20,423 nt of DNA from Gemmatimonadota bacterium (GCA_040905425.1 JBBDRO010000017.1:1-20423); one strand, 5' to 3'; positions 2,753 through 19,527 are shown, counted from the first letter of the stretch. Notes: a model not told the origin generated them from the sequence alone. Translations and numbers: made by a program.

Positions 2753-3087
2753 GCGCCCCCCTCCGCCGCCGCCACCCGGGACACGGCCGCCGCGAAGCGC
2801 GTCCAGTCCGCCTGCTGGCGTTTCACCTCCCGCTGGCCGGCGGCCGTGAGACGGTAGAACCTGGCCCGGCGATTGTTCTCGGATACGCCCCACTCGCTTT
2901 CCAGCAGCCCCTTCTTCTGCAGCCGGTGCAGCGCCGGGTAGAGGGAGCCCTCCTCCACGGCCAGCACGTCCTCCGTGGTGCGCTCGATCCATCGCGCCAC
3001 GCCGTAGCCGTGCATGGAGCCCCACGTGAGCGCTTTGAGGATGAGGAAGTCCAGGGTGCCGTGCAGGAGATCCAGGTCCTTGCCCAT
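2749..3087 (-). CDS. PadR-family transcriptional regulator, acidobacterial type (TIGR03433-like), 112 aa (PadR1)
   Basis: MGKDLDLLHGTLDFLILKAL..HGYGVARWI..EEGSLYPALHRL..ENNRRARFYRLT. Start chosen by family length; no clear SD, so the start is slightly uncertain. Confidence 0.93.
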   Translation of the reverse strand: MGKDLDLLHGTLDFLILKALTWGSMHGYGVARWIERTTEDVLAVEEGSLYPALHRLQKKGLLESEWGVSENNRRARFYRLTAAGQREVKRQQADWTRFAAAVSRVAAAEGGA

Positions 3088-3152
3088 GATGCATGCGGGG
3101 TTCGGGTAGGGATGGCGCCGGCAAGCGGTGGGAGGCCGCCCGGCAGCGTCTT

Positions 3153-3202
3153 CCATAGAGCGTCTATGGTAGGGTACAGCGGTTCCCATAGACGCGCAAG
3201 GG
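3153..3202 (-). promoter_or_regulatory. Putative sigma70 promoter of padR1 with two operator-like palindromes
   Basis: Minus strand TTGCGC (3194-3199), 17 bp, TACCCT (3171-3176). Perfect CCATAGA-N3-TCTATGG at 3153-3169 and degenerate CCATAGA-CGC-GCAAGGG at 3186-3202. Confidence 0.7.
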
Positions 3203-3236
3203 GAGCGCAACCGGGGGGGGAGTTGCGGTACCCCAC

Positions 3237-3254
3237 ACATCGATATATCAATGT
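3237..3254. promoter_or_regulatory. AT-rich near-palindrome upstream of padR2, candidate operator
   Basis: ACATCGATATATCAATGT: 18 bp with one mismatched pair, ~40 bp before the padR2 start in otherwise GC-rich DNA. Confidence 0.45.
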
Positions 3255-3295
3255 CTGGAGTAAGCGACGTCCCCACGCACCTCCAGGAGCGCCCC

Positions 3296-3634
3296 ATGCC
3301 GCCGCGCCACCTCCGCCTCACACCCACATTCTTCCATCTCCTGCTGTGCCTGGCCGAGGGGCCCAAGCACGGCTACGCCATGATGGGGGAGATCGAGGAG
3401 CGAACCGGGGGGAAGCTCTCCCTGGGCCCGAGTTCGCTGTACTACTCCCTGGGCCGCCTGGAGGACGCCGGGCTGATTGCCGAAACCTCGGTGGCCGCCG
3501 CGGACGACGAGGTCCACGGCGAGCGGCGCCGCTACTACCGGCTGGCACCCGCAGGCCGGCGGCGCCTCCGCGAGGAGGTGGCCGTGCTGGAGGGCGTCAT
3601 GGATCACGCGCGCGCCCGCCGCGTGCTGGGCTGA
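3296..3634 (+). CDS. PadR-family transcriptional regulator, 112 aa (PadR2)
   Basis: LTPTFFHLLLCLAEGPKHGYAMM..LGPSSLYYSLGRLEDAGLI..ERRRYYRLAPAGRRRL. SD AGGAG at 3285-3289 supports ATG 3296 over 3251. Confidence 0.92.
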   Translation: MPPRHLRLTPTFFHLLLCLAEGPKHGYAMMGEIEERTGGKLSLGPSSLYYSLGRLEDAGLIAETSVAAADDEVHGERRRYYRLAPAGRRRLREEVAVLEGVMDHARARRVLG

Positions 3635-3643
3635 GGAGGGACC

Positions 3644-6256
3644 ATGCGTGACCCGGCACACATCCGCCTGCTGCGCCTGCTGCTCCTGCTCTATCCCCCA
3701 TCCCTCCGGCGCCGCTCCGGCCGGGAGATCCTGGCCAGCGCTCGGCGCGCGGCTGCCGCGGGGCACGGCCGCCCGGCGGCCGTGCTGGCGGACGGCGTGC
3801 TCACCCTCGGGCGTGCCTGGGCCCGGGCCGTGATCGAGGCCTTCACGGAGGTGAGTCCCCGGCGCACGGCGTCCGCGTTGCACCGCGATGCCGTGCTCAC
3901 CCTGCGCGGGCTGGCGCGTCGCCCGCTGCAGGGCGCGGTCATCGTGCTCACGCTTGCGGTAGCGCTGGGGGCCAACGCCGCCATCTACACGGTGACCCAC
4001 GGGGTCCTGCTCGAGACGCTCCCCTACGAGGACATCGACCACGTCATGCGGGTGGAGGCGCCGCCGCTCCGCATGGTGGGAGGTGCCGATGGCCCGTACT
4101 GGCTCGTGGGGCAGGCGCTGGCGGAGCATCCCGGCGTGGCATCCGCGGCCACCTTCTACCGGGACGCCGCCGCTAATCTGGTCGAGGGAGCGGACGCCAG
4201 CCGGGTGCGCATCACGCAGGTGTCGGATGCCTTCTTCCAGGTACTGGGCGCACCCATGCTGCTGGGGCCCGGTATTCGCCCGGGTGACGACGCAGCGGAT
4301 CAGGCCGTACTGAGCTATCCCCTGTGGCAGCGCGCCTTCGGCGGCGAGCGGGATGTCATTGGCCGCACGCTGCGGCTCAACGGCCGGAGCTTCCGCGTGG
4401 CGGGCGTGGCCGTGCAGGGCGTGGACTTTCCGGCGGGCACGGAGCTGTGGCTCTCCGACCCGCCGATCGGTGAGTTCTTCGGCGGTGCGCTCGGGCCGGA
4501 TGTGGTGGCGCGGCTCCGGCCCGGCTACGGGAGCAGTGTCACGGACGCCATGCGGTCCTACGCGGCGTCGACCCGGGAGGAGGCTGGACCGGAGTACGCC
4601 GACCGCATACGCGATCCGGTGCTGATCCCGGTGCGGAGCGAGCTCATGCAGGACGTTCGCCTGCCGCTGCTGGTGCTCTCCGCCGCGGCCGCCGCGCTCC
4701 TGCTGCTGGGGTGCGTGAACGTGGCGGGCGTGTCGCTGGCCCGGCTCTCCGTGCGCCGTGGCGAGCTGGCCATGCGGCGGGCGCTGGGTGCCAGTGGCGG
4801 GCGCATCTTCGGGCAGCTCATGGCGGAGCTGGGCGTGTTGGCGCTGGTGGCCGGCACGCTGAGCGTGCTGCTGGCGGCGGCCATGGTGCCGCTGCTGGTG
4901 GCGCTCCTGCCGGCCGCCACGCCGCGCCTGGACCAGATCCGGCCGGGCTTGTGGACGCTGGCCTTCACGGCCGCGGCCACCTGCGCGGCCGCGCTCCTGG
5001 CGGGCCTGCCCGCCGCCATCGCGGCCGCCCGGGGCGCGCGGAGCGCACCGCATCCCGACCGCGTGCGCCCGGACGACGTGGGCGGGTTGCGCTTCCAGGG
5101 GGTCCTGACCGGCGCGCAGGTGGCGCTGGCCGTGGCCCTCGTGGTGGTCGCCTCCCTGCTGGGCCGGAGCCTGGCCGAGCTGCGCGCCGTGCCGCTGGGC
5201 TACGACACGCGGGGCGTGCTCACGTTCCAGGTGCGGTTGCCGGACACCGCCTACCCCGACGGCGCCTCGCGCCAGACGTATGTCGAGACCGTGCGCGCAC
5301 GCCTGGCGGCGCTTCCGGGCGTGGCGGCCGTGGGCGTCACGGACCGGCTGCCGCTCGCCGACGGCATGGGCATCGGCGGCCGGGTATGGCGCGCTGAGGC
5401 CGCCGCAGACACCGAAACGGGCATGACTCAGCTGGCGGTGAACGCCGGCTTCTTCGACGCCATGGGGATCGACCTGGTGGAGGGCAGGGCGTTTCAGCCC
5501 GGCGACGAGGAGAGCGGTGCGGTCATCGTGGCGCGCGAGCTGGCCCGCACGCTCTTCGGGGAGACGTCGGCGGTCGGCCAGAGGCTGGCCGTGCGCAGCT
5601 TCCGGACGCCGGAAAGCGTGCACGTGGTGGGCGTGGCCGGGGACGTTCGCCTGAGCGGCATGGACACGGAAGGCCACGCTCCGGTGATGTACGAGCCGCT
5701 TGCGGCGGCGCGCATAAGCTGGCCAGCGTTCGCCGTTCGCACCGCCGGTCCGCCCACCCGCCTGGCGCCGGAGGTGCGGGCCATCCTGGCGCAGATCGAC
5801 CCGGCGGTACCGCCCTTCGACATCCGCACCACCGGGGACGCCGTGGCCGAATTGCTGGCGGCCCGCCGCGCAGTGGCGCTCCTGGCGGCGCTCTTCGGTG
5901 CGGCGGCGCTGCTACTGGCCGCGCTGGCCGTCTACGGCCTGCAGGCGCAGGGCGTGGCACGCCGCCAGCGGGAGCTCGGCATCCGCCTGGCACTCGGCGC
6001 CACCGCGGGTCAGATCCAGCGTTTCGTGGTTGCCAGGGGACTGGCCTGGACGGCGCTGGGCACGGTTGCTGGGCTGCTGCTCGGTCTGGGCGCCGCGCGG
6101 CTCCTGGAGGGGCTCCTCTTCGGCGTTGCGCCCCGCGACCCGCGCCACTTCGCCGCCGCCGCGCTCGCGGTATTCCTGGCGGCCGCGTTCGCCTCGTGGC
6201 TGCCGGCGCGGCGTGCGGGGCGAACCGATCCGCTGGGCACACTTCGCGGGGAGTAG
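3644..6256 (+). CDS. ADOP-family duplicated ABC permease, 870 aa, with LLLLLYPPSLRRRSGREI-type N-terminal prefix (permease 2)
   Basis: SD GAGGAGG before the ATG. Motifs LALGANAAIYTV-like TM1 (VALGANAAIYTV), GCVNVAGVSLAR..RRGELAMRRALGA, QVALAVALVV, RQRELGIRLALGA, PARRAGRTDPLGTLRGE. Confidence 0.93.
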   Translation: MRDPAHIRLLRLLLLLYPPSLRRRSGREILASARRAAAAGHGRPAAVLADGVLTLGRAWARAVIEAFTEVSPRRTASALHRDAVLTLRGLARRPLQGAVIVLTLAVALGANAAIYTVTHGVLLETLPYEDIDHVMRVEAPPLRMVGGADGPYWLVGQALAEHPGVASAATFYRDAAANLVEGADASRVRITQVSDAFFQVLGAPMLLGPGIRPGDDAADQAVLSYPLWQRAFGGERDVIGRTLRLNGRSFRVAGVAVQGVDFPAGTELWLSDPPIGEFFGGALGPDVVARLRPGYGSSVTDAMRSYAASTREEAGPEYADRIRDPVLIPVRSELMQDVRLPLLVLSAAAAALLLLGCVNVAGVSLARLSVRRGELAMRRALGASGGRIFGQLMAELGVLALVAGTLSVLLAAAMVPLLVALLPAATPRLDQIRPGLWTLAFTAAATCAAALLAGLPAAIAAARGARSAPHPDRVRPDDVGGLRFQGVLTGAQVALAVALVVVASLLGRSLAELRAVPLGYDTRGVLTFQVRLPDTAYPDGASRQTYVETVRARLAALPGVAAVGVTDRLPLADGMGIGGRVWRAEAAADTETGMTQLAVNAGFFDAMGIDLVEGRAFQPGDEESGAVIVARELARTLFGETSAVGQRLAVRSFRTPESVHVVGVAGDVRLSGMDTEGHAPVMYEPLAAARISWPAFAVRTAGPPTRLAPEVRAILAQIDPAVPPFDIRTTGDAVAELLAARRAVALLAALFGAAALLLAALAVYGLQAQGVARRQRELGIRLALGATAGQIQRFVVARGLAWTALGTVAGLLLGLGAARLLEGLLFGVAPRDPRHFAAAALAVFLAAAFASWLPARRAGRTDPLGTLRGE

Positions 6257-6278
6257 GGCTGCATGTCCGGAGCATCGA

Positions 6279-7469
6279 TCACTGCTCCGGACGCGGTTGC
6301 GCCGCGATCCGAAACACCTCCAACTCATCGACGTGGGGTGCGTACTCGGGATCGTTCCTGCCAGCCGCAAACCGCTCGCGGAAGCGGGCATGATAACCGG
6401 CGGCCGCGGCCGCATTGCCCATTGCCTCTGCCGCGCTCGCGGCAATGCCCAGATTCAGGAGATTATCCGGATCGCGGATGAGCGCCTCTTCTGCGTACAG
6501 GCGCGCATGCTCTGCGGCACCGTCGATCATCAGCAGATGCGCGATGTGATAGCGGGCGTGCGGGTTGAGCGCGTGGGTCTCCACCCGCTGGTAGGCCACG
6601 GCGGCGGCCGCGCGCAGCGTTGCGGCACGGGCGGTGTCCTGCGCATCTGCGGCGATCGCCTCGCGGTAGAGCGCATGCGCGCGGCCCAGCGCATCGCCGG
6701 GCGAATCGCCGCGCACATCCGCCACGATGAGCAGAGCGAACACCACCACGACCAGGTAGACGAACACGGCGGTTCCGGCCGCCACCGCCGTGCGGAGGGC
6801 GCTCGTCCGGAAGAAGTTCCGGGCGCCATAGAACAGCCAGACCACCAGTGCGATCATCGGCACTGCGTCCAGGTTGTTCCAGGGATCCGGCAGGCGGTCG
6901 AGCGACAGCACGAGCACCATGGCAAGAAACCCCACCGCGTGCGCGTGCAGTGCAAAAACGAGATGCTCGAGGTACAGCAGGCCTGAGCCGCGCAACAGCA
7001 GGCGCGTAAAGCCCGCGAACAGCGGGACGAGCGCGAAGAGGACGGCTGCCCCGTAATTCTGCACACCCTCGCCGAGTGTCATGCTGCTGGCGATCGCACG
7101 GACCTGGACATCGGCGTTCGCCGCCTCCGGAATCCCGGCTGACGGGTCGTCGGGCAGGAGGGCCGGCAATGCGAACATCAGCACCGATGCCAGCAGGTAA
7201 AGACGCACCGGCGCGGTCCAGCGCGCGCGCCGGCCGTCCACCCATTCGCGCGCGACCAGTCCCGGTCGCAGCAGCAGCGCGCGCAGCGTGCGCGGCAGCC
7301 GCGCCTCCCACGAGAACACATCGTCGGCCAACTCGATCAGCCAGTCCCGCAGTGTCAGACGTGACGTAACTTGACGCTGGCCACAGTCCGCGCAGTAGAC
7401 GCCGACATCGGTAGCGTTGCAGTTCGGACAGCGGACGGCGGACGGCGCCGATTCGATTGTGATGGCCAT
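6279..7469 (-). CDS. DUF3667-domain membrane protein with N-terminal Zn ribbon and helical (TPR-like) C-terminus, 396 aa
   Basis: CPNC..YCADCGQ followed by RLPRTLRALLLRPG..W.DGRRARWTAPVRLYL, typical of DUF3667. Several hydrophobic segments including YLEHLVFALHAHA. C-terminus AEEALIRDPDNLLNLGIAA is TPR-like. Start at ATG 7469 is inferred. Confidence 0.82.
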   Translation of the reverse strand: MAITIESAPSAVRCPNCNATDVGVYCADCGQRQVTSRLTLRDWLIELADDVFSWEARLPRTLRALLLRPGLVAREWVDGRRARWTAPVRLYLLASVLMFALPALLPDDPSAGIPEAANADVQVRAIASSMTLGEGVQNYGAAVLFALVPLFAGFTRLLLRGSGLLYLEHLVFALHAHAVGFLAMVLVLSLDRLPDPWNNLDAVPMIALVVWLFYGARNFFRTSALRTAVAAGTAVFVYLVVVVFALLIVADVRGDSPGDALGRAHALYREAIAADAQDTARAATLRAAAAVAYQRVETHALNPHARYHIAHLLMIDGAAEHARLYAEEALIRDPDNLLNLGIAASAAEAMGNAAAAAGYHARFRERFAAGRNDPEYAPHVDELEVFRIAAQPRPEQ

Positions 7470-7555
7470 GACCGCAAGATTGGATCGAAAGGCCCGCGTG
7501 TAAACAGGAATGAGTGTTACGGGGAGCAATCTTCGAACTGCGGGCCTGTGGATTT

Positions 7556-7621
7556 AGCAGCGGCCGCGGCAGCGCCGAGGACCAGCGCCACGGCGGCGAA
7601 CGTGACGGGATCCGTGGGTCT
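7556..7621 (-). pseudogene. Fragment of the last TM segment of an ADOP/MacB permease
   Basis: Translates RPTDPVTFAAVALVLGAAAAAA, matching intact permease tails in this window (ATDPLVFAAVAGSL.., PDDPLTFAFITALLAA..). Lacks the rest of the gene and the PARRA motif. Confidence 0.6.
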
Positions 7622-7655
7622 GTAAGTGACGCCCCCCCAATACTTCCTCCGCGCC

Positions 7656-8348
7656 TCAACCGTGCGCGGCGGGCGCCTCCTCCTCCTCGGGCTGCATCCA
7701 GCCGTCCAGCAACTCCACCACCCGGTTGCCGTAGGATGCGTTCTCCTCCGAGTGGGTCACCTGGATGATGGTGGTGCCGTCATCATTGAGCTGCTTGAAC
7801 AGCTCCATGATCTCCCGCCCCTGCGCCGAGTGCAGGTTGCCCGTGGGCTCGTCGGCCAGGATGAGCTTGGGGTTGGCCGCCACGGCCCGCGCCACGCCCA
7901 CGAGTTGCTGCTGTCCGCCCGAGAGCTGGCTGGGGAAGAGGTCCTTCTTGCCGACGATGTTGAAGCGGTCGAGGATGTCGGCCACCGTGGCCGCGCGCTC
8001 CCCGCGGGGGACGTTCCGGTAGGAGAGGGGGATCTCCAGATTCTCGTAGACCGTCAGATTGTCCAGCAGGTGGTACTGTTGGAAGACGAAGCCGATGTAG
8101 CTCTTGTTCAGCTCGGCGCGCTGCTTCTGTCTCATGCGATGGACGGGCTGGTCCAGGAACCAGAACTCACCGCCCCAGTCGGCGTCCAGCATACCAAGGA
8201 TGCCCAGGAGTGTGGACTTGCCGGCGCCGGAGGGCCCCATCACCGTCACGAAGTCGCCCTGCTTCACATGCAGGTCGATGCGGCGCAGCAGGTAGAGCTT
8301 GCCGGCCTTCGTGTCGATGGCCTTCTCGAGGTTGCGGAGCTTCAACAT
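7656..8348 (-). CDS. ABC transporter ATP-binding protein, MacB/LolD/FtsE family, 230 aa
   Basis: Walker A GPSGAGKST, Q-loop FVFQQYHLL, signature LSGGQQQ, Walker B ILADEPTGNL, H-loop VTH. SD GAGGA upstream of ATG 8348. Confidence 0.96.
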   Translation of the reverse strand: MLKLRNLEKAIDTKAGKLYLLRRIDLHVKQGDFVTVMGPSGAGKSTLLGILGMLDADWGGEFWFLDQPVHRMRQKQRAELNKSYIGFVFQQYHLLDNLTVYENLEIPLSYRNVPRGERAATVADILDRFNIVGKKDLFPSQLSGGQQQLVGVARAVAANPKLILADEPTGNLHSAQGREIMELFKQLNDDGTTIIQVTHSEENASYGNRVVELLDGWMQPEEEEAPAAHG

Positions 8349-8402
8349 GCGGCGGTTCCTCGCGGTGGTCTCGGGTTCGTGCGGCCGGGTGGCCACGCCT
8401 TG

Positions 8403-8431
8403 ACGATGGGGGACTGCACGGCCGGTGTAAA
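8403..8431 (-). promoter_or_regulatory. Putative sigma70 promoter of the ABC ATPase
   Basis: Minus strand TTTACA (8426-8431), 17 bp, CATCGT (8403-8408). Confidence 0.45.
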
Positions 8432-8521
8432 GTGCTTCCTTCCTGAACGCTGCCTCCGGGGATGGTCCCCGAATCTTTGCCGGGGGCTTGTCGGCATCGG
8501 TTTCTCGCGCGATCGTAGGTT

Positions 8522-8953
8522 GTGGACTCCTTTCTGCTCTTCCCGCTCTACGTGCTGGCCGTGCTCATGGCCGGCTTGGCCTCCGTACTCATGGTGCGTT
8601 GGGTGCTTGCGCGCCGCCGCGCCCAGCGACGGGTGGTGGAGCGGCCCAATTCCCACTACACCTCCGAGGGTGTGCGGCGCAACGAGACGCGCAGCCGCTG
8701 GCACGCCATCGATCGTGCGCGGCTCCACGAAATCAACCGCGGAGAGGTGGAGCGCCTGCTCGCCCGCGTGGACGCGGCGGGTCCGGAGTCACTGCGTGCG
8801 GACGAGCGCCGCTTCCTGGATTACCTGGTCGAACTCACCGGTGGGGCGCCGGACGACGCCGCCGGGAGCGATGCGGCGGGGCCCCGCGATCCGCCCCGGG
8901 GCACCGGCGGCGCCTCCGGTGCGCGCGCCCTGCCGGACTCAGGGGGCGGCTAG
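8522..8953 (+). CDS. Small single-TM protein with DUF6576-like (rhomboid C-terminal-like) domain, 143 aa
   Basis: Hydrophobic N-terminus followed by a basic cluster (RRRAQRR). RLHEINRGEVERLLARVDAAGPESLRADERRFLD resembles the DUF6576 tail seen on some rhomboid proteases. GTG start is uncertain. Confidence 0.7.
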   Translation: MDSFLLFPLYVLAVLMAGLASVLMVRWVLARRRAQRRVVERPNSHYTSEGVRRNETRSRWHAIDRARLHEINRGEVERLLARVDAAGPESLRADERRFLDYLVELTGGAPDDAAGSDAAGPRDPPRGTGGASGARALPDSGGG

Positions 8954-9020
8954 GGGCGGGGGCCCCCGGCCCGCGCTCCTGCCTCACGATCCCGAGCTGG
9001 CCGGGGAGTGACGACGTCCG

Positions 9021-9434
9021 TTACACCGTGCCTCGGGGCACCACCCACTCGACGGACTGGCCTGTGGCTATCGCAATCTGGTCGAAATGCGCGTCGTCAT
9101 GCAGGACGACAAGACCCGCCGCCTCAGCCGCTGCCGCCACGATCAGATCCGGGATCGGCAACCGGTGTTGCCCCCTTCGCGCGAGCTCGCCCTGTACGTC
9201 CATCGCCCGGTTCAGCACCCCATCATCCACCGCGACTCGCTCATACGCCTGCGCCCGCCGGGAGCGAATTGTCCGATGATCCTTCGCATTCCGGGCGCTG
9301 TAGAGGATCTCCAGCTCGATGATCGCGCATGTTGCCGCCTGGCCCGCCTGGATCAACTGGTCCAGGCGTGCGCGCACCGACGCGTCCGGCATCCGGGCCA
9401 GCGCGCTCTTGTCCACCAGGTACCGTGCGCTCAC
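9021..9434 (-). CDS. vapC: Type II TA toxin, PIN-domain ribonuclease VapC, 137 aa
   Basis: YLVDKSALAR, ELEILYSAR, PDLIVAAAAE, LHDDAHFD. Acidic PIN residues D8, E42, D96, D114. GTG start overlaps the antitoxin stop (GTGA). Confidence 0.93.
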   Translation of the reverse strand: MSARYLVDKSALARMPDASVRARLDQLIQAGQAATCAIIELEILYSARNAKDHRTIRSRRAQAYERVAVDDGVLNRAMDVQGELARRGQHRLPIPDLIVAAAAEAAGLVVLHDDAHFDQIAIATGQSVEWVVPRGTV

Positions 9435-9646
9435 GGGCCCCAGGCTCCTGCCATCACCTCAGGATCGTCCAGGTCCATGCCCTCCATCGTGCTCAGCGCC
9501 TCGACCTCACGCCGCCGCGCCGCGTCCCGGATCACTTCCAGGAACGCCTCCTCGACGGTCTCTCTCAACGTTGCCGTGCCCAGGATCCGGCGCACCTGCT
9601 CGAACAGCGCCTCGTTGATCTCCACCGTGGTCTTTCGGCTTGCCAT
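9431..9646 (-). CDS. vapB: Type II TA antitoxin VapB (RHH-type), 71 aa
   Basis: RKTTVEINEALFEQVRRILGTATLRETVEEAF is an RHH-like N-terminus. Acidic tail DLDDPEVMAGAW. Directly upstream of and coupled to vapC. Confidence 0.92.
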   Translation of the reverse strand: MASRKTTVEINEALFEQVRRILGTATLRETVEEAFLEVIRDAARRREVEALSTMEGMDLDDPEVMAGAWGP

Positions 9647-9693
9647 ATGCCCCCGATCACACTCGCTGGATATAAGGTATTGGCTCTGAGCTA

Positions 9694-9722
9694 AATCTAG
9701 TCGATAAATATCTCGCTATCAA
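9694..9722 (-). promoter_or_regulatory. Near-consensus sigma70 promoter of vapBC
   Basis: Minus strand TTGATA (9717-9722), 17 bp, TAGATT (9694-9699), in an AT-rich patch. Confidence 0.65.
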
Positions 9723-9795
9723 TCCTACTTTCCACGGTATTCCACCGCCGGCGGGGGCGCGCTTCGGCTACGCACCCCGAACCCGCTCGCTCTCC

Positions 9796-9848
9796 CCTTG
9801 ACAAACGGAAGGACGCATCCCACCCTTCCTTTCGGAAACCGAAAGGAG
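9796..9848 (+). promoter_or_regulatory. Putative sigma70 promoter of padR3 with two operator-like sites and SD
   Basis: TTGACA (9798-9803), 17 bp, CACCCT (9821-9826). Perfect TCCTTTCGG-AAA-CCGAAAGGA at 9827-9847 overlaps SD AAAGGAG (9842-9848). Degenerate site CCTTGACAAACGGAAGG at 9796-9812. Confidence 0.7.
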
Positions 9849-9854
9849 CGACGA

Positions 9855-10235
9855 ATGAGTCCGACCGGCAGGCAGCACCCTACCCCCGAGGAGGCCCGTG
9901 GCGGTGAGGTCATCAAGGGCACCCTGGACCTCCTCATCCTGCGCACCCTGCACGTGGGTCCCATGCACGGCTGGGGGATCACCGAGCTCATCGAGTCCGG
10001 CTCGGACAATCTCCTGTCCGTGAACCAGGGCTCCCTCTATCCCGCGCTCTACCGTCTCGTGCGCAAGGGGCTGCTCCGCTCGAAATGGCGGCAGACCGAA
10101 AACAATCGGCGGGCCCGCTACTACGAGCTCACCGCCGCGGGACGTGAGGCGCTCGGCCACGAGCGCGCCACCTGGGAGCGCCTCTCCCGCGGCGTGAACC
10201 TGGTGCTGGCGGGAGGCCCGGCATGCGAACTCTGA
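9855..10235 (+). CDS. PadR-family transcriptional regulator, acidobacterial type, 126 aa (PadR3)
   Basis: IKGTLDLLILRTL..HGWGI..NQGSLYPALYRL..ENNRRARYYELT. SD AAAGGAG 6 nt before ATG 9855. Confidence 0.94.
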   Translation: MSPTGRQHPTPEEARGGEVIKGTLDLLILRTLHVGPMHGWGITELIESGSDNLLSVNQGSLYPALYRLVRKGLLRSKWRQTENNRRARYYELTAAGREALGHERATWERLSRGVNLVLAGGPACEL

Positions 10236-12856
10236 GGAGCCTCCGGGAACTGGCGCGTCGGCTGCGAGGGACGCTCGGGCGTCGTCGCCTGGAAAAGGAG
10301 ATGGACGAGGAGCTCCGCTTCCACCTGGAGCGCCTCACCGAGCGGAATCTCCGCGCGGGGATGAGCCCGGCCGAGGCGCGGCGGCGGGCCCGCCTTACCT
10401 TCGGCAACCTGGAGGGCACACGGGAGCGGGGCAGGGACGAGCAGCGCAGCAGGCACCTGGAGATGCTGGGGCAGGACGTCCGCTACGCGCTCCGGCTGCT
10501 CCGGCGGAGCCCGGTCTTCACGGCGGCGGCGGTGCTCACGCTGGCGCTCGGGATCGGGCCGAGCACGGCCGTCTTCAGTGTGGTGGACGGGGTGCTGCTG
10601 CGGCCGCTGCCCTACCCGGAGCCGGAGCGGCTGGTGGCCATCGAGGCGCTGGGCTACAAGGGCGAGCTCCTCCACCTCCAGGAGCATGCCCGTACGCTGC
10701 GCGCGGAGGCGGTGGGGTGGCCCGAGTCCTTCGACCTCACCGGCCCGGGTGATCCGGAGCGGGTGGAGGGGGTGCGCGTCACGGCCGGGGCCTTCGACCT
10801 GCTGGGGGTAACCGCCGCCCCGGGGCGCACCTTCGCGGCGGGAGAGGATCGGGCGGGCGCCGAGCCGGTGGTGCTCCTGGCCCATGACTTCTGGGTGCGC
10901 CGCTTCGGCCGGGACCGCGCGGTGCTGGAGCGCACGCTGAGCGTGGACGGCGTGGCGCGGCGCGTGGTGGGGGTGCTCCCGCCGGGGCTCCACCACCCCT
11001 TCGCCGCGCCCGAGGTGGTCCTTCCCGTGACCATGAACCCCGCGGATGCCATCGAGATCTGGAGCCAGACGGCGGGCACGCTGGTGGCGCGTCTCCATCA
11101 TGAAAGCGACGTCCAGTCCGCGACTCGCGAGCTGGCTTCCTTCCTCCCCGCCATGCGCGCTTCGTTCCCGTGGGACATGCCGCCGGACCACGGCAGCGGG
11201 CTGACCCTGACGCCGCTCCAGGAATTCATGGTGGGGGACGCGCGCCCGGGGCTCCTCCTCCTGGGGGCGGCGGTGGCCATGGTGCTGCTCATCGCGTGCG
11301 TGAACGTGGCGTCGCTCCTCCTGGCGCGGGGTGCCGCGCGGCGCGAGGAGGCGGCGCTCAGGGCGTCGCTGGGGGCCACACCGGCGCGGGTGCTCCGGCA
11401 GCACCTCACGGAGGCGCTGGTGCTGGCGGGGCTGGGCGCCGTGGCGGGCGTGGCGTTGGCCCGGGGGCTCCTGGCGCTCCTGCTGGTGTGGCTCCCCGCC
11501 GAGGTGCGGGTGGGCGCCATCGGCATCGACGCCAGGGTGCTCGGCGTCACCGCGCTGGCGTCGGTGGCGGCGGCGGTGGCCATCGGGGTGCTCCCGGCGC
11601 TGAAGGCCCGGGCGTTTGCCCTGCGGGCGGCGGTGGGCGCCCGGGGGCGGGGCGCCACGGGCTCCGGCCGCAGGCGCGCCGGCGGGTTGCTGGTGGCCAC
11701 CGAGCTGGCCGCGGCCACCGTGCTGCTCCTCTCAGCGGGGCTGGTGCTCAAGGGCTTCGCCGGCCTCCTGGCCACGGATCCGGGCTTCCGCACCGAGGGG
11801 GTGGTGGCGGCCACCGTGTCCCCGCCGCTCTACCGCTACCCCTCGGATGACGCCCTGCGCGCCCTGCACGCGGACCTCCTCGAGGCGGCGGCTGCCCTGC
11901 CGGCGGCGGAGGCCGTGGCCCTCACCGATCGGGCGCCGTTCAGCGGGCGGCCCGGCGGGAGCGTCTTCGTCATCGAGGGCCGGCCCCATCCGGCGAGCAG
12001 CGGTGGCGGCTGGCCGTGGGCCGACCTGCGGGGCGGGGTGAGCCCCGCATACTTCGATGTGCTGGACATCCCGCTGGTGGCGGGTCGGACCTTCTCCACG
12101 GCGGATGGCGCGGGGACCGAGCGCGTGGCCGTCGTCAGCCGTCAGCTCGCCGCCAACTACTGGCCGGAGGGTGACGCCCTGGGCGCCCGCTTCACCTTCC
12201 CGGGGGACACGGTGGTCACAGAGGTGGTGGGCATCGTGGAGGACGTGCGGTGGGAGGATCTCACCGGTCCCATGCCCGGCGCGCTCTACCTCTCCATGGC
12301 GCAGTGGGTGAGTCGCGGCCCGGTGGACCTGCTCGTGGCCACCGATGCGGCACCGGCCGCGCTCCGTGCTTCGCTGCGCGCCGCCATCGACCGGGTGGAC
12401 AACGCCACCACGCTGGCCGGGGTCGCGCCCCTGGGGTCGTGGGTCGGCGCCTCCATTCGGGAGCCCCGCTTTACGGCGTTGCTCCTCGGTGCCTTCGCCG
12501 CGGTGGCGCTCCTCCTGGGGGCTGTGGGCGTGTATGGCGTCATGGCCCAGGCTGTGGGGCAGCGCCGGCGGGAGTTCGGGGTGCGCATGGCGCTCGGGGC
12601 CTCCCGCGCGGGTGTGACCGGGATGGTGCTCCGCGAGGCGGGTGCGCTGGCCGTGGCCGGCGTGGGGGTGGGGACACTGGCCGGGCTCGCCGCGGGGCGT
12701 CTGCTCGCCGGGCATCTCCACGGCGTGGCGGCCACGGACCCGTTGGTGTTCGCGGCGGTGGCGGGGAGCCTTTGGGCGGTGGCCCTCACAGCGGCGTGGC
12801 TGCCGGCGCGGCGCGCGGCGCGGGTGGAGCCGGTGTTGGCGTTGCGGGGGGAGTGA
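10223..12856 (+). CDS. ADOP-family duplicated ABC permease with permease-prefix/HAAS-like N-terminus, 877 aa (permease 3)
   Basis: EMDEELRFHLE..GMSPAEARRRARLTFG; QDVRYALRLLRRSPVFT..LALGIGPSTAVFSVVDGVLLRPLPY; IACVNVASLLLAR; RRREFGVRMALGA; PARRAARVEPVLALRGE. 13-bp overlap with padR3; SD GGGAGG. Confidence 0.95.
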   Translation: MRTLRSLRELARRLRGTLGRRRLEKEMDEELRFHLERLTERNLRAGMSPAEARRRARLTFGNLEGTRERGRDEQRSRHLEMLGQDVRYALRLLRRSPVFTAAAVLTLALGIGPSTAVFSVVDGVLLRPLPYPEPERLVAIEALGYKGELLHLQEHARTLRAEAVGWPESFDLTGPGDPERVEGVRVTAGAFDLLGVTAAPGRTFAAGEDRAGAEPVVLLAHDFWVRRFGRDRAVLERTLSVDGVARRVVGVLPPGLHHPFAAPEVVLPVTMNPADAIEIWSQTAGTLVARLHHESDVQSATRELASFLPAMRASFPWDMPPDHGSGLTLTPLQEFMVGDARPGLLLLGAAVAMVLLIACVNVASLLLARGAARREEAALRASLGATPARVLRQHLTEALVLAGLGAVAGVALARGLLALLLVWLPAEVRVGAIGIDARVLGVTALASVAAAVAIGVLPALKARAFALRAAVGARGRGATGSGRRRAGGLLVATELAAATVLLLSAGLVLKGFAGLLATDPGFRTEGVVAATVSPPLYRYPSDDALRALHADLLEAAAALPAAEAVALTDRAPFSGRPGGSVFVIEGRPHPASSGGGWPWADLRGGVSPAYFDVLDIPLVAGRTFSTADGAGTERVAVVSRQLAANYWPEGDALGARFTFPGDTVVTEVVGIVEDVRWEDLTGPMPGALYLSMAQWVSRGPVDLLVATDAAPAALRASLRAAIDRVDNATTLAGVAPLGSWVGASIREPRFTALLLGAFAAVALLLGAVGVYGVMAQAVGQRRREFGVRMALGASRAGVTGMVLREAGALAVAGVGVGTLAGLAAGRLLAGHLHGVAATDPLVFAAVAGSLWAVALTAAWLPARRAARVEPVLALRGE

Positions 12857-12992
12857 GGGGATGCGCCGGGACCGGGGCGGACAGGCTCACGGATGGTCGG
12901 CCACCGCATGCCCGTTCCGGCGCCTCGCGCCCGCGGCCTGCCGCCTTTCGGATCCCGATGCACCTCGAATATGGCGGGGCGGCCGCGTGCCT

Positions 12993-13026
12993 GTCTTGAA
13001 GAAAACCCGGTTTTGAAGGAAAGCCG
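12993..13026 (-). repeat. Tandem 17-bp imperfect direct repeat just downstream of araC
   Basis: Minus strand CGGCTTTCCTTCAAAAC / CGGGTTTTCTTCAAGAC (14/17 identical). Confidence 0.6.
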
Positions 13027-13032
13027 CCCGTT

Positions 13033-13884
13033 TCAGTCGGGGCGGCGCCGGCGCCGATAGCGTCCGGGGGTCCAGCCGGTGGCCTGCCGGAAGGTCCGCG
13101 TGAGGTGCGCCTGGTCCGCGAAGCCGGCGCGGAGGGCCAGCAGGGCAATGGGCTCGTCACCGTCCACGAGGCGCTCGGCCACCCACGCCACCCGGAGGCG
13201 CCGCACGTAGGTGCCGAGTGGGACGCCGTGCGCCGCGCGGAAGGCGGTGGCCAGCCGCGCGGGCTCCACCCCCGCCTCGGCGGCCACCTCCGTCACGGTG
13301 AGGCGCTCGCGGAAGCGGTCGTGGACCAGTTCCACCACCCGCCGCAGCCAGGCGGGGTCCGGCGGCGCGTGGCGCCGGCGTGGCTCCAGGCGCGCGGCCT
13401 CCACCAGCATGCCCAGCGCCAGCGCCTCCGCCGACAGGAGACTCAGGTCGTCACGCCGCCCCACCTCTCGCGCCAGCCGGCGCCCCAGCTGTTCCACCTC
13501 CGCGTGGCGGAAGTGGCTGATACGGTCCAGCACGGCGCCACAGGCGGCGTTGACGCCCGCGTCCGGATGGGGCTGGATCACGAGCACCCGCGCCCCGCCG
13601 GCGAAGAGATGGTTGGCGTGCTTTTCCCCGGCGGGCTCGGTGAAGGTGGTGCCGGGCGGGCAGGGCAGCGCCCGCCGGCGGATCGCCGCGCTGGTGAAGC
13701 GCAGATCGAACCCGCCCTCCAGGATGAGGGCGAAGGTGGTGCGCTCGTGGACGTGCGGCTCGAGGATCGTGGCTCCGGGGAAGCGCGCCACGGTCAGGAG
13801 GAAGCTGCCGGTGTCGGAGACGCTATGCGTCCTGCTGCCCATCTGGACGGGCTCGGCTCCCGCCAGCGAGCGACTGTGGGCCAT
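13033..13884 (-). CDS. AraC-family transcriptional regulator with N-terminal cupin domain, 283 aa
   Basis: Cupin PHVHERTTFALILEGGF. C-terminal HTH pair ending GFADQAHLTRTFRQATGWTPGRYRR. SD GGAGG before ATG 13884; alternative ATG at 13842. Confidence 0.93.
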   Translation of the reverse strand: MAHSRSLAGAEPVQMGSRTHSVSDTGSFLLTVARFPGATILEPHVHERTTFALILEGGFDLRFTSAAIRRRALPCPPGTTFTEPAGEKHANHLFAGGARVLVIQPHPDAGVNAACGAVLDRISHFRHAEVEQLGRRLAREVGRRDDLSLLSAEALALGMLVEAARLEPRRRHAPPDPAWLRRVVELVHDRFRERLTVTEVAAEAGVEPARLATAFRAAHGVPLGTYVRRLRVAWVAERLVDGDEPIALLALRAGFADQAHLTRTFRQATGWTPGRYRRRRRPD

Positions 13885-14063
13885 GGATCCTCCCGCGGGT
13901 TCCGCGCAGGGGCTGCCGGTGCGCGCGCCGGGATGCCGTGTCGTGTCGGCGTCCGAACACGAGGTCCGGTCAGTTTCCCGCCATTCGACGTCACCCTCCC
14001 TGAGAACGCCCCAGCCGGCGGTGGGCTGCACAACGGAGGCCAGGCCATGGGGGACGGATCCTG

Positions 14064-16745
14064 TCACTCCTCCCGCAGCACCCCCGCCGGGTCCACACGC
14101 GTGGCCCGCCGGGCAGGAAGCAGTGCGCTCACCAGGGCCACGGCGGCAAGCAGTGCGGTGATGAAAGCAAAGGTCAGCGGATCGTCCGGCTGCACGCCGT
14201 ACATGAAGCTGCCGACCAGGCGCGTGAGGGCCAGGGCCGCGATCACTCCGGCGCCCAGCCCGAGCGCAACCGGCGCCAGCATGGTCCGGATGACTGTAGC
14301 CAGGACGCGGCCGCGGCCTGCGCCCAGCGCCATGCGTATGCCGATCTCCCGGCGTGTGCGGCCGACCGTGAAGCTGACCACGCCGTAGATCCCGACGGCC
14401 GCCAGGAGCAGCGCCAGCGCGCCGAAGAGCGTCAGCAGCGTGGCGCCCATGCGTTGGGGCATGAGCACCTGGCCGAGCTGCTCGCGCAGCGTGCCCATGG
14501 ACAGCAGCGGCACCTCCCGGTCCACCGCCCGCACCACGTCCTGGATGGCGTTCAGGAGGGGGTCCGTATCTCCGGCTGTACGGGCGAGCAGCGTGAGACG
14601 TTGCGGCGCGGGCCCCTGCGTGAGCGGCATGGTGACGAACGCCGTGCCGGGAGACTCCAGCCCGAACCACTCCATGTCCCGCGCGATCCCCACCACCCGC
14701 ACTTCGCGTGAGCCCAGCTGGAAAGAGGAGCCCAGGGCGTCCCGATCGGGCCACCAACGGGCTGCCATGCTCTCATTGATGAGGGCCACCCAGCCACTCT
14801 CCCGGGTATCGGTGGGGAGCAGCCCGCGCCCGCGGACCACCGTGGCCCCGACAGCGTCGAAGAAGCCGGGTGTCACGAAGTTGTACTCGATGCGCAGATC
14901 CTCCCCCGCCGCTGGCTGGTAGCCAGGCACCTCGATGAAAGTGCCGAACCCGCCGGGTTCGAGGGGCGCTCGCATGGCCAGCGCCGTCGCCTGGACGCCG
15001 GGGAGCCCGGCCGTCCGAGCGAGGATGCGTTCCGACAGGGCGCGCGCCGGATCGCCATCGTACCCCGCCGCGCTCACGTCGAAGGTGGCCAGCGCCAAGC
15101 CATCGGGGTCGTAGCCCTTCTCCGTCCCCATGGCATTGCCAAGGGAGCGGAGGAAGAGGCCGGAGCCGACCAGCAGGATCAGGCAGAGGGCCACCTGCAA
15201 CGCCACCAGGCCTGTGCGTAGTCCGCCACCCACGGAAGCGCCCCGCGCGCCGTCCTTCAGTGCGGAAACCACGTCCGCGCGCCCCCCCTGGAGTGCCGGA
15301 ATGAGGCCGAAGAGGACGCCCGTCAGCACCGACAGCGCGAAGGCAAAGACCAGGAGGCGCCCGTCCAGCCCCGTATTGAGCTGGCTGATGGCCACGCCGC
15401 CGGGGAGGGCGAAGGCGGACAGGGCCCGGAAGAGCGCCCACGCCACCGCCAACCCGGCAGCCCCGCCGACCACCGCCAGCAGGACGGCCTCCGTGAGGAG
15501 CTGCCGGACGAGGCGTCCCCCGCCGGCTCCCAGCGCTACCCGAATGCCCATCTCCCTGCGCCGGGCGGTTGCGCGGGCCAACAGCAGGTTGGCCAGGTTG
15601 GCACAGGCCAGCAGCAGCGTGAAGCCCACCACGCCTGACAGCAGCATCACGAAGCGGGTCATGCCGGCGCCCGCGTTGGTGGGGCGCACATAGCCGTCGA
15701 GCGGGTCGACGGTGACGGAGCGACCCTCATTCAGGTCCGGGTAGTCGGCGGCCAGCTGCCCCGCGATGGTCTCGAGCTCACCCCGCACCTGCTCGACCGT
15801 GGTGCCGGGGGCCCGCCGTCCCACCGCACGGGCAATCCACCGCTGCGCCCGACTGTCGAGCAGCGATGCATCGCGGGCACGGCCGTCGAGCAGGGCCAGT
15901 GCGTCGGTCAGCGGGACGTAGACGTCGGGCGGCCCGCCCAGATCCACCCCACGGAAGCTCTCGGGCGCCACCCCCACCACCGTGAAGGAAGCGCCGTCGA
16001 GTCGGAGCGTCCTGCCCAGGATGCCCCGATCGCTGCCGAACCGGTCGCGCCAGAGCGCGTGGTCCAGCACCGCCACGGGGTCGGCGCCCCCGGCATCCTC
16101 GTCCGCCTGTTGGATGGGGCGGCCGAGCGCCATGGACACGCCCAGCACCTCGAAGAAGTTTCCCGAAATCAGGAACGCGCCCAGGACGTCGGCACCCTCG
16201 TCGGTGGAGATGCTCGTAGACGAAAAGGTGTACGCCGCCAGTCCGGCCAGGGTCGTGGAGCGCTCCCGATAGCTCAGGTAGTCGGGCCAGGAGAGCGTGC
16301 AGCGCGGGTCCCCGTTGCGGCAGGTGGTGTAGACCATGGCCAGCTCGGCGGGTGCGCGGACCGCCGGTTGGCGCAGCAGGGCGGCGTCGGCCACGCCGAA
16401 GATGGCCGTGGTGGCCCCGATGCCGAGGGCCAGAGTGGCCACAGCCGTGACCGTGAAGCCGGGGCGGCGTGCCAGCGCCCGGACAGCGAAGCGCACGTCC
16501 TGAACGATCGATTCAAACCGGTGCCTCCACGCGGCCCGCCGGGCGTGCCGCGTGCCGATGGCGCCCAGCTCCGATGCGATGCGCTCCCGGTCCCCGAAGC
16601 GCTCCCGGGCCCGGCGGAGCGCCTCCTCGGGCCGCACCCCTTCCACCTGCTGGATCTCCTTTGCGCGGAGTTCAAGGTAGAAGTCCAGCTCCTCCTCGAT
16701 GGCCCGCTCCCGGTCCGCGCCGGGACCGTGGCCCCCGCCGCTCAT
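14064..16745 (-). CDS. ADOP-family duplicated ABC permease with permease-prefix/HAAS-like N-terminus, 893 aa (permease 4)
   Basis: IEEELDFYLE..EEALRRARERFGD; QDVRFAVRALARRPGFT..LALGIGATTAIF; LACANLANLLLARATARRREMGIRVALGA; QVALCLILLVGSGLFLRS; PARRATRVDPAGVLREE. Start at ATG 16745 overlaps the padR4 stop (ATGA). Confidence 0.95.
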   Translation of the reverse strand: MSGGGHGPGADRERAIEEELDFYLELRAKEIQQVEGVRPEEALRRARERFGDRERIASELGAIGTRHARRAAWRHRFESIVQDVRFAVRALARRPGFTVTAVATLALGIGATTAIFGVADAALLRQPAVRAPAELAMVYTTCRNGDPRCTLSWPDYLSYRERSTTLAGLAAYTFSSTSISTDEGADVLGAFLISGNFFEVLGVSMALGRPIQQADEDAGGADPVAVLDHALWRDRFGSDRGILGRTLRLDGASFTVVGVAPESFRGVDLGGPPDVYVPLTDALALLDGRARDASLLDSRAQRWIARAVGRRAPGTTVEQVRGELETIAGQLAADYPDLNEGRSVTVDPLDGYVRPTNAGAGMTRFVMLLSGVVGFTLLLACANLANLLLARATARRREMGIRVALGAGGGRLVRQLLTEAVLLAVVGGAAGLAVAWALFRALSAFALPGGVAISQLNTGLDGRLLVFAFALSVLTGVLFGLIPALQGGRADVVSALKDGARGASVGGGLRTGLVALQVALCLILLVGSGLFLRSLGNAMGTEKGYDPDGLALATFDVSAAGYDGDPARALSERILARTAGLPGVQATALAMRAPLEPGGFGTFIEVPGYQPAAGEDLRIEYNFVTPGFFDAVGATVVRGRGLLPTDTRESGWVALINESMAARWWPDRDALGSSFQLGSREVRVVGIARDMEWFGLESPGTAFVTMPLTQGPAPQRLTLLARTAGDTDPLLNAIQDVVRAVDREVPLLSMGTLREQLGQVLMPQRMGATLLTLFGALALLLAAVGIYGVVSFTVGRTRREIGIRMALGAGRGRVLATVIRTMLAPVALGLGAGVIAALALTRLVGSFMYGVQPDDPLTFAFITALLAAVALVSALLPARRATRVDPAGVLREE

Positions 16746-17077
16746 GACGCACCTCCCGCCTCCAGCACCGCCCACACGGCGCGGGCGTGCGCCTCCCAAC
16801 GCGCCCGCTCCGCCTCCATGTGTGCGCGCCCGTCGGCGGTAAGGGTGTAGAATTTGGCACGGCGGCCGGTGTCCGTCCTGCCCCAGCCGGCTTCGAGAAG
16901 GCCGCGCGCCTCCAGGCGGTGCAGGGCGGGGTAGAGCGCTCCCTCCTCCACCGCCAGGGCGTCCCCGCCCGCGGCGCGGATGGAGCGGCCGATGGCGTAG
17001 CCGTGGAGCTTCTGGCCCGCCAGGGTCTGGAGAACGAGCAGATCGAGCGTGCCGGTGAAGAGATTCGATCCGGACAT
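16742..17077 (-). CDS. PadR-family transcriptional regulator, acidobacterial type, 111 aa (PadR4)
   Basis: LFTGTLDLLVLQTL..HGYAIG..EEGALYPALHRLE..TGRRAKFYTLT. Confidence 0.94.
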   Translation of the reverse strand: MSGSNLFTGTLDLLVLQTLAGQKLHGYAIGRSIRAAGGDALAVEEGALYPALHRLEARGLLEAGWGRTDTGRRAKFYTLTADGRAHMEAERARWEAHARAVWAVLEAGGAS

Positions 17078-17164
17078 GGTTCGTCGGGGTCCAGGGGGCG
17101 GAGGCGCGGCCCGTTCGGTGCTGGGCTCGCGGAGGTGTGAGCGGGCAACGGTCGTGCCTACACA

Positions 17165-17214
17165 CCTTGCTGACTTAGGTATAAGCTACGTCGGTGATAC
17201 CTAAGTGGTCAAGG
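17165..17214 (-). promoter_or_regulatory. Putative sigma70 promoter of padR4 with two operator-like half-palindromes
   Basis: Minus strand TTGACC (17207-17212), 18 bp, TAGCTT (17183-17188). Sites CCTTGCTGACTTAGG (17165-17179) and CCTAAGTGGTCAAGG (17200-17214). Perfect inverted arms ACTTAGGTAT (17173-17182) / ATACCTAAGT (17197-17206). Confidence 0.7.
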
Positions 17215-17243
17215 GGTTTATCATGCCCGAACATCGACTTCGA

Positions 17244-19494: not shown

Positions 19495-19527
19495 TTGCCT
19501 CTAAAGATCTATAAGACTATATCTTTA
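19495..19527 (+). promoter_or_regulatory. Putative gntR promoter overlapped by a palindromic operator
   Basis: TTGCCT (19495-19500). TAAAGATCTA-N6-TATATCTTTA (19502-19527; arms 9/10 complementary) ends 2 nt before the ATG. Confidence 0.6.

Follow-up and report, generated by a model that had tools for sequence, protein, structure and literature searches.

How a genome that carries many relatives of one repressor gene might keep their circuits apart, and which residues of each repressor would read which DNA, is the question raised by a 20,423-nt stretch from a Gemmatimonadota bacterium (contig C17:1-20423, here called the window; genome of 4.12 Mb in 115 contigs, roughly 70% G+C). Three genes of the window, padR1, padR3 and padR4, encode small PadR repressors, each followed by a gene for an ADOP permease. 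The explanation that accounts best for their upstream DNA, and one in which we have fair confidence, is insulated autorepression by paralog-specific double operators together with induction relayed by the permease; as judged from sequence, each PadR probably shuts off only its own repressor-permease operon. The genes concerned are the following.

2749-3087, minus strand: padR1, 112 aa, helix-start motif EEGSLYP, TIGR03433 139 bits
11-2752, minus strand: ADOP1 permease, TIGR03434 689.2 bits, NF038403 43.6 bits
9855-10235, plus strand: padR3, 126 aa, NQGSLYP, TIGR03433 133.2 bits
10223-12856, plus strand: ADOP3 permease, TIGR03434 768.6 bits, NF038403 52.3 bits
16742-17077, minus strand: padR4, 111 aa, EEGALYP, TIGR03433 121.8 bits
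14064-16745, minus strand: ADOP4 permease, TIGR03434 835.3 bits, NF038403 32.0 bits

The three PadR proteins score above the curated cutoff of TIGR03433 (padR_acidobact, an NCBIfam paralog family; 101.8 bits, whole-protein score). The permeases are of the duplicated MacB/FtsX type, with two MacB_PCD and two FtsX stretches each in Pfam, and pass the cutoff of TIGR03434 (ADOP duplicated permease, 622.3 bits), just under which lies a further permease, ADOP2 (617.1 bits). At their N-termini ADOP1, ADOP3 and ADOP4 carry the permease prefix domain 1 (NF038403, cutoff 30 bits), which spans residues 26-76 in ADOP1. The stop codon of padR1 overlaps the start codon of ADOP1 as ATGA, the same ATGA joins padR4 to ADOP4, and the reading frames of padR3 and ADOP3 overlap by 13 nt; by this arrangement, each of the three PadR genes is the predicted first gene of a two-gene padR-ADOP permease operon.

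Written on the coding strand, and hence right to left for the minus-strand genes padR1 and padR4, the three upstream regions align on a common C-rich flank and a TTGnnn hexamer, which is followed 17-18 nt on by a putative -10 element (TACCCT in padR1, CACCCT in padR3 and TAGCTT in padR4). The promoters share a layout in which one site (site A) is centred on the end of the -35 element and a second (site B) begins 1-3 nt past the -10.

3186-3202, minus strand: padR1 site A, degenerate dyad over the -35, 4/7 self-complementary
3194-3199, minus strand: padR1 -35, TTGCGC, with the strong half-site TCTATGG adjoining at 3186-3192
3171-3176, minus strand: padR1 putative -10, TACCCT, after a 17-nt spacer
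3153-3169, minus strand: padR1 site B, perfect dyad CCATAGA-N3-TCTATGG (7/7), 2 nt after the -10
9794-9812, plus strand: padR3 site A over the -35, self-dyad 3/8
9798-9803, plus strand: padR3 -35, TTGACA, with the half-site CGGAAGG at 9806-9812
9821-9826, plus strand: padR3 putative -10, CACCCT
9828-9846, plus strand: padR3 site B, perfect dyad CCTTTCGG-N3-CCGAAAGG (8/8), 2 nt after the -10
17197-17214, minus strand: padR4 site A region, with -35 TTGACC at 17207-17212 and then half-site ACTTAGGTAT at 17197-17206
17183-17188, minus strand: padR4 putative -10, TAGCTT, after an 18-nt spacer
17165-17182, minus strand: padR4 site B region, half-site ATACCTAAGT at 17173-17182 and a degenerate outer half

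A first-pass annotation of this DNA had proposed dual palindromic operators at all three promoters, and their positions, at the -35 and after the -10, were borne out. The symmetry it had ascribed to them held only in part: site B of padR1 and of padR3, both recovered exactly as it had written them, are the only perfect palindromes among the window sites, whereas the sites overlapping the -35 are poor dyads. At padR1 and padR3, site A consists of one good half-site directly after the -35 and a partner constrained by the -35 itself. Site B of padR3 abuts the GGAG ribosome site. The palindrome CCTAAG-N3-CTTAGG that had been assigned to padR4 is absent from the genome, even with one mismatch allowed, and neither padR4 15-mer is palindromic (3/6 each). 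The padR4 -10 is bracketed by the inverted repeat ACTTAGGTAT-N14-ATACCTAAGT (10/10), and 17165-17214 in full forms one inverted repeat with 18-bp arms (15/18); the -10 of padR1 is likewise bracketed, by GCGTCTATGG and its complement 16 nt apart (10/10). The distance between the centres of sites A and B, put earlier at about 33-35 bp, is 33 bp at padR1, 34 bp at padR3 and 35 bp at padR4 by coordinates. Its description as about three helical turns is apt only loosely, the 33-36 bp amounting to 3.1-3.4 turns and so not in phase; the spacing takes this value because it is set by promoter geometry.

The canonical PadR operator is an ATGT-N8-ACAT palindrome. Both ATGT and ACAT are absent from the dyads at 3153-3169 and 9828-9846 and from the padR4 half-sites; the outer tetramers CCAT-N9-ATGG resemble the canonical operator in geometry. 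Two other roles for these elements were considered and rejected: an RNA hairpin, as the predicted transcription start lies inside site B and only one arm would be transcribed, and a binding site for an activator, as the sites cover the -35 and the start.

The evidence that carries the proposal comes from the family as a whole. The genome holds 17 strong paralogs, 14 of them with a promoter score of at least 12, and the family was found in 10 of 21 genomes (this one and 20 relatives). The set assembled comprises 111 PadR genes from 11 genomes, each preceded by 90 nt or more of sequence (L098, L029 and L026 were left out for short upstream regions); 81 of these upstream regions reach a promoter score of 12 or more, as do 7.6% of dinucleotide shuffles. 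A relaxed consensus for the family, TTGAC, 17 nt and then T/C-A-n-n-n-T, is well over the shuffles; the spacer is 17 nt long in 60 of the 81, and start codons lie at a median of 39 nt past the -10.

Within the 81 promoters scoring at least 12, to which the own-versus-cross repeat comparisons are confined, 8-mers from the first 12 spacer bases were matched against the 37 nt past the -10, with the downstream regions of the other promoters as controls. The spacer 8-mer recurs in inverted orientation at 7/8 or better in 32 of 81 promoters (cross-promoter 7.3%), perfectly inverted in 14 of 81 (0.9%) and in direct orientation at 7/8 or better in 26 of 81 (7.0%), and own matching exceeds cross-promoter matching with a Mann-Whitney p of 7e-11. 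The symmetry of site A was scored about an axis at the sixth base of the -35 hexamer: of the six bases that precede the hexamer, 2.73 on average are complementary to their mirror positions in the spacer of the same promoter, and 1.93 when promoters are mixed (permutation p about 0.0005); by this measure, the upstream site is a real dyad over the -35 at the level of the family. As for site B, 44 of 76 promoters have a compact dyad past the -10 in which at least 7 of 9-10 pairs match (12.9% of shuffles); in 20 of the 44 its centre and the site A axis are 33-34 bp apart, and in 7 they are 36 bp apart. The half-site motif varies by paralog and includes TCTATGG, TCTAGGGG, TCTGAAGG, TCTACAGG, TCGACAGG, CGAAAGG, TTAGG types, TTGATGGG and AAGAGTCTT. 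At six loci in relatives (L071, L036, L042, L017, L027 and L052), the dyad halves, or the spacer half-site and the dyad, are of unlike motif types, for example TCGACAG with TCTAGAG or TCTGAAG, which hints at hybrid sites or cross-regulation between paralogs.

A perfect 7-N3-7 palindrome by itself is not rare: the window holds 9, against 4.0 +/- 2.0 in 30 dinucleotide shuffles, and the two at the PadR promoters are the only ones with at least three A/T per arm. The significance of the sites comes instead from their adjacency to promoter hexamers, uniqueness in the genome, conservation between twin paralogs and the own-versus-cross comparisons across the family. The padR1 site B dyad has its sole exact copy in the 4.1-Mb genome here, and its near-copy, with one mismatch, lies at C98:17280 before the twin paralog of padR1. 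The padR3 dyad is also unique, with a near-copy at two mismatches before its twin at C56:18439, and so is the long inverted repeat of padR4. The twin of padR1 encodes a protein 90% identical, and the two upstream regions are 70% identical overall; the twins agree throughout a 21-nt block that runs from the 3' part of the C-rich flank across the -35 and the half-site, and at 16 of 17 positions of site B, while the remaining spacer and the -10 have diverged. A search of the 20 relatives returned no close padR1 ortholog (best 66% identity), and conservation is therefore judged on within-genome twins and at the family level. Past site B, in the predicted leader, a 10-nt block, CGCTGCCGGG, at about 3135-3150 is also kept between padR1 and its twin (L011), where the surrounding leader has diverged and contains a 70-nt indel.

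Insulation was assessed with perfect 8-mers, as a 7/8 threshold is too loose (29 of 91 pairs). Within the genome, a perfect 8-mer is common to 6 of 91 promoter pairs, namely two twin pairs, padR4 and a paralog on contig C25, a TGTCGGAA group and an AAGAGTCTT pair, and the promoters of padR1, padR3 and padR4 are pairwise without any 7/8 word in common. The earlier proposal that each paralog autorepresses an insulated operator fits all of this sequence evidence: site positions, uniqueness, the lack of a common word and own-site matching. The hexamer CTTAGG with its complement occurs 62 times in the genome, where base composition alone predicts about 1158, and given this rarity the padR4-type half-site is unusually distinctive.

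In the mechanism that we favour, a relaxed sigma-70-type promoter, with a C-rich flank, a TTGACA-like -35, a spacer of 17-18 nt and a TAnnnT or CAnnnT -10, would drive each operon. The primary dyad, 1-3 nt past the -10, would lie over the predicted transcription start, and a weaker auxiliary dyad would be centred on the last base of the -35, which constrains its outer half. A cognate PadR dimer on each site would block RNA polymerase, so that repressor and permease would be autorepressed together. As the cassette was duplicated, the operators would have diverged jointly with the DNA-facing residues of the repressors (28-31, 45-48, 54 and 71-72 in padR1 numbering), as a result of which most paralogs in a genome would hold private operators and recent twins would still share one. 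Induction would probably be relayed by the permease: according to a complex prediction, its cytoplasmic N-terminal prefix domain would bind PadR on the face that reads DNA, and this docking would pull the repressor off the DNA.

The AlphaFold model of PadR1 (predicted local distance difference test score, pLDDT, 91) comprises helices at residues 11-22, 27-37 and 46-58, strands at 62-68 and 74-80 and a helix at 82-107, which correspond to a recognition helix (46-58), a wing (62-80) and a C-terminal helix (82-107). With about 110 residues, a winged helix-turn-helix and a single C-terminal dimerisation helix, the model is of the PadR subfamily 2 type, and its closest structure matches are a Brachyspira hampsonii PadR (9qbd), 1xma, LmrR and a Listeria monocytogenes transcription factor (6abq). 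The motifs EEGSLYP, NQGSLYP and EEGALYP, read earlier from the DNA, are present in the three translations, and EEGS stands at the start of the modelled recognition helix. In the available text on Bacillus subtilis PadR, base contacts are made by Tyr20, His38, Ser39, Gln40 and Tyr42 together with the wing (PMC5728393). Y28 and Y50 of PadR1 are 22 residues apart, as are the tyrosines of the B. subtilis protein, and by this Tyr-Tyr spacing, rather than a structural alignment, E46, G47 and S48 would correspond to His38, Ser39 and Gln40. The PadR motif of Park 2017 consists of a pair of conserved tyrosines, one opening helix 2 and the other helix 3, and a basic residue in strand 2. Y50 is nearly invariant; at position 28, where the family as a whole has Y, W, F or L, padR1 and padR4 have Y and padR3 has W; R76 is placed as the strand-2 basic residue by spacing only.

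The complex of two PadR1 chains with residues 1-100 of ADOP1 was predicted with our own paralog alignments (69 and 32 rows). The interface score ipSAE was 0.71, 0.71 and 0.72, with 0.02 for the best of three controls; the runs agreed in at least 72% of contacts, and partner pLDDT was at least 64. On the PadR1 side the predicted interface involves residues 26-28, 31, 45-48, 50-51, 54-55, 58, 69, 71 and 73-76, that is, the DNA-reading face, and on the ADOP1 side residues 31-45 and 64-81, in and just beyond the prefix domain. In 32 PadR-prefix pairs, covariation at z of at least 4 was found for 4.0% of predicted interface column pairs and 1.6% of the others, and the top covarying pairs (Y28/R43, S48/F65, E45/R43 and E46/D67) all lie in the interface. 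The prediction suggests that the prefix domain is an anti-repressor that would occlude the DNA-binding surface of PadR, and the helix-start residues may be under two constraints at once, from the operator and from the prefix. An extension of this model, which we put forward tentatively, is a three-way lock, in which one variable PadR surface (the beginnings of helices 2 and 3 and the wing tip) would both read a private operator and dock the prefix of its own permease, with operator, face and tag co-diversifying after duplication.

The same data could be read to mean that variability of the PadR DNA face serves chiefly to match each repressor to the prefix domain of its own permease, operator divergence being secondary or neutral drift. 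The predicted interface takes in positions 28, 31, 45-48, 50-51, 54, 71 and 73-76, and covariation is modestly enriched there, but the case depends on a predicted complex and on small statistics that are confounded by phylogeny, and operators that are strongly kept in twins and unique in the genome speak for selection on DNA specificity too. Pairing as the main function seems unlikely, and in any event permease pairing and operator specificity are not mutually exclusive.

Several observations weigh against autorepression through private double operators with permease-relayed induction. The upstream half-site of padR3, CGGAAGG, agrees with CGAAAGG at only 6 of 7 positions, and padR4 is without a local dyad after its -10 (5/10 pairs). 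A strict sigma-70 scan of 3000-17300, requiring at least 4/6 matches to each of the TTGACA and TATAAT hexamers at 16-18 nt spacing, misses all three promoters on account of their weak -10 hexamers, and promoter assignment therefore rests on the family-level comparison. That comparison draws on related sequences and on promoters chosen by consensus score; kinship raises the cross-promoter scores, so that the own-versus-cross comparisons are conservative on that count. The spacer element is repeated in either orientation at 7/8 or better in only 42 of 81 promoters, and the ALYQ and ALYT subfamilies are without it. At the loci concerned, which are two paralogs on contig C2 (reverse complement 8772 and 46956) and L041, L066, L069, L072 and L078, the ALYQ subfamily has no spacer half-site, the two C2 paralogs have a -10 followed by two AAGAGTCTT-like copies at a distance of 13 nt, and in the ALYT subfamily there is one dyad, CCCATSAA-N3-TTSATGGG. 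The calibration of ipSAE favours the docking, a value of 0.71 having been attained by 116 of 157 solved complexes and by 2 of 215 mismatched pairs, but its set-up differs from ours, which used our own alignments and two PadR copies. Pfam HAAS (PF22564) gave no match on the four ADOP N-termini at E of up to 10, and hhalign of the ADOP prefix alignment against the HAAS-like protein of the window gave a probability of 0.3; the prefix is accordingly not classed as a HAAS domain. It does match NF038403 prefix domain 1.

Some of these points would be accommodated if only the dyad after the -10 worked as an operator, with the -35 half-site a leftover of promoter duplication or a weak decoy. Site A is a poor dyad at all three window promoters, 39 of 81 promoters are without a repeated spacer element at 7/8 or better, and entire subfamilies have downstream sites alone. 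This account nevertheless appears decidedly improbable, as the paralog-specific spacer element matches its own downstream site far above the cross-promoter controls, the flank upstream of the -35 co-varies with the spacer element, and the spacer element is identical in the padR1 twin despite divergence of the remaining spacer.

It had also been proposed that the operator of each paralog is determined by the first residues of the recognition helix, EEGS, NQGS or EEGA. These residues begin helix 3 in the model and match the B. subtilis contact residues by tyrosine spacing. Alignment columns were compared with operator similarity over the 42 promoters with validated half-sites, in statistics that are exploratory and confounded by phylogeny; the strongest correlations (padR1 numbering) were these.

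Position 28: r = 0.39
Position 71: r = 0.38
Position 46: r = 0.29
Position 29: r = 0.28
Position 31: r = 0.25
Position 48: r = 0.23

All of the top-correlating columns are on DNA-facing elements, in the regions that contact DNA in B. subtilis PadR, with positions 46, 48 and 45 ranking third, sixth and ninth; mutual information gave a similar picture. Broad site classes do follow the helix start, in that GALYP accompanies TTAGG-type sites and ALYT and ALYQ accompany other classes. Against the proposal, N-Q-S at positions 45, 46 and 48 occurs in 14 of the 42 validated promoters, yet with at least five half-sites (CGAAAGG, TCTAGGGG, TTCGACAACA, GTCTACAG and TCTAGAGG), these paralogs differing instead at positions 31, 54, 71 and 72, and E-E-S paralogs carry both TCTATGG and TCTGGGTA. 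With overall identity controlled for, the partial r is 0.31 at position 71, 0.21 at 28, 0.17 at 29 and 0.06 at 46, and the helix-start residues also lie in the predicted permease-prefix interface and co-vary with the prefix domain. Of the earlier proposal, what stands is that these residues start the recognition helix and co-vary with operators; by these comparisons they belong to the reading surface and track broad site classes, and are insufficient as a code. That they alone set specificity we consider highly doubtful. The idea that the functional unit is one long inverted repeat bracketing the -10 (arms of 10 bp separated by 14-16 bp, to which a dimer of dimers would bind or which would form a cruciform) rather than two dyads is very improbable, since, for all that the arms are perfect at padR1 (gap 16) and padR4 (gap 14) and form the sole clear symmetry at padR4, the half-site centres are 24-26 bp apart, too far for a single PadR dimer (about 13 bp in the geometry inferred from the B. 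subtilis contacts), and most relatives have a compact dyad after the -10 and a dyad axis on the -35.

Autorepression from private double operators has its closest studied system in LmrR of Lactococcus lactis, which, in the portions of PMC4534193 available, represses its own gene and transporter genes, with two dimers on PlmrCD and several on PlmrR. Both are small subfamily 2 PadR proteins with a winged helix-turn-helix and one C-terminal helix, and the PadR1 model matches LmrR chains. In LmrR, however, drugs are sensed in the pore of the dimer and the target is a classical ATP-binding cassette (ABC) exporter, whereas the partner of padR1, padR3 and padR4 is an ADOP permease with a prefix domain; unlike in LmrR, the present sites are off the PadR consensus and there are many paralogs, each with a private operator. 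B. subtilis PadR, in the available text of PMC5728393, binds the padC operator as one dimer per palindrome, with contacts from the starts of helices 2 and 3 and the wing; it belongs to subfamily 1 and has a large effector domain, whereas PadR1 is of the subfamily 2 type.

For the inducing step, the available sections of Ravi et al. 2024 (PMC11237479) describe PadR-like winged helix-turn-helix proteins paired with membrane proteins that bear an N-terminal helical HAAS domain, propose a signalling role and list HAAS fusions to FtsX-like permeases with MacB periplasmic domains. The present pairs resemble these dyads in having a stand-alone PadR gene beside that of a membrane protein, and the docking prediction (ipSAE 0.71, as against 0.02) supports contact between PadR and the prefix. 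They differ in that the ADOP N-termini are without a Pfam HAAS match, and operators and docking on the DNA face do not appear in those sections of PMC11237479. The CarS antirepressor of Myxococcus xanthus, in the available part of PMC2926617, occupies the recognition helix of its repressor and removes the repressor from the operator, as is predicted for the prefix domain. CarS has an unrelated, soluble fold, whereas the prefix domain is tethered to a transporter and its interaction is predicted. Transporters that report their own activity to a regulator of their own gene are represented by BceAB-BceRS and Mlc-PtsG; the former uses a histidine kinase, the latter sequesters a ROK-family repressor at the membrane, and neither involves PadR.

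The window contains two further, more distant PadR genes, both under the TIGR03433 cutoff, and a number of neighbouring features.

3296-3634, divergent: padR2, distant PadR, 54 bits
19083-19451, minus strand: padR5, distant PadR, 59 bits
3238-3253: 16-bp AT-rich near-palindrome CATCGATATATCAATG (14/16 symmetric) over the putative -10 of the divergent padR2
7656-8396, minus strand: stand-alone ABC ATPase gene (ABC_tran, 101.6 bits) amid the 'orphan' permease operons
9021-9434, minus strand: PIN-domain gene, with a small upstream open reading frame at 9431-9646, just upstream of the padR3 promoter
18305-19102, minus strand: membrane protein gene downstream of padR5, weak Pfam HAAS match (23.8 bits, cutoff 27)
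19502-19527: palindrome TAAAGAT-N12-ATCTTTA (7/7) between padR5 and a divergent GntR-family gene (start 19530)

The permease of padR2 is just under the ADOP cutoff, and there is no prefix-domain-1 match among those listed for it. The ABC ATPase could be a shared ATPase for the ADOP permeases, and the PIN-domain gene with its small upstream reading frame looks, from its sequence, like a VapBC-type toxin-antitoxin pair. Together with the membrane protein encoded after it, padR5 may represent another type of PadR-partner pair in the window; the palindrome on the other side of padR5 adjoins the start codon of the GntR-family gene.

The PadR-ADOP pair is among the most expanded gene pairs in soil phyla, and to our knowledge its signals and binding sites have so far been undescribed; full-text searches of the literature returned no account of operators in this family. 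Paralog-private double operators are the kind of switch to be expected here. The family offers a double-site scaffold in fixed register, many matched repressor-operator pairs and a predicted docking of permease tags, and the aligned pairs, numerous in each genome (111 collected, 42 with validated half-sites), are suited to the derivation of a winged-helix recognition code and of orthogonal repressors. If the prefix truly docks on the DNA-reading face, it would provide a concrete mechanism for the proposed HAAS-PadR type of signalling and would explain how 'orphan' permeases control their own synthesis. Were the three-way lock to hold, a genome would contain a dozen or more insulated circuits, in each of which the transporter would signal its state by detaching its repressor from the DNA.

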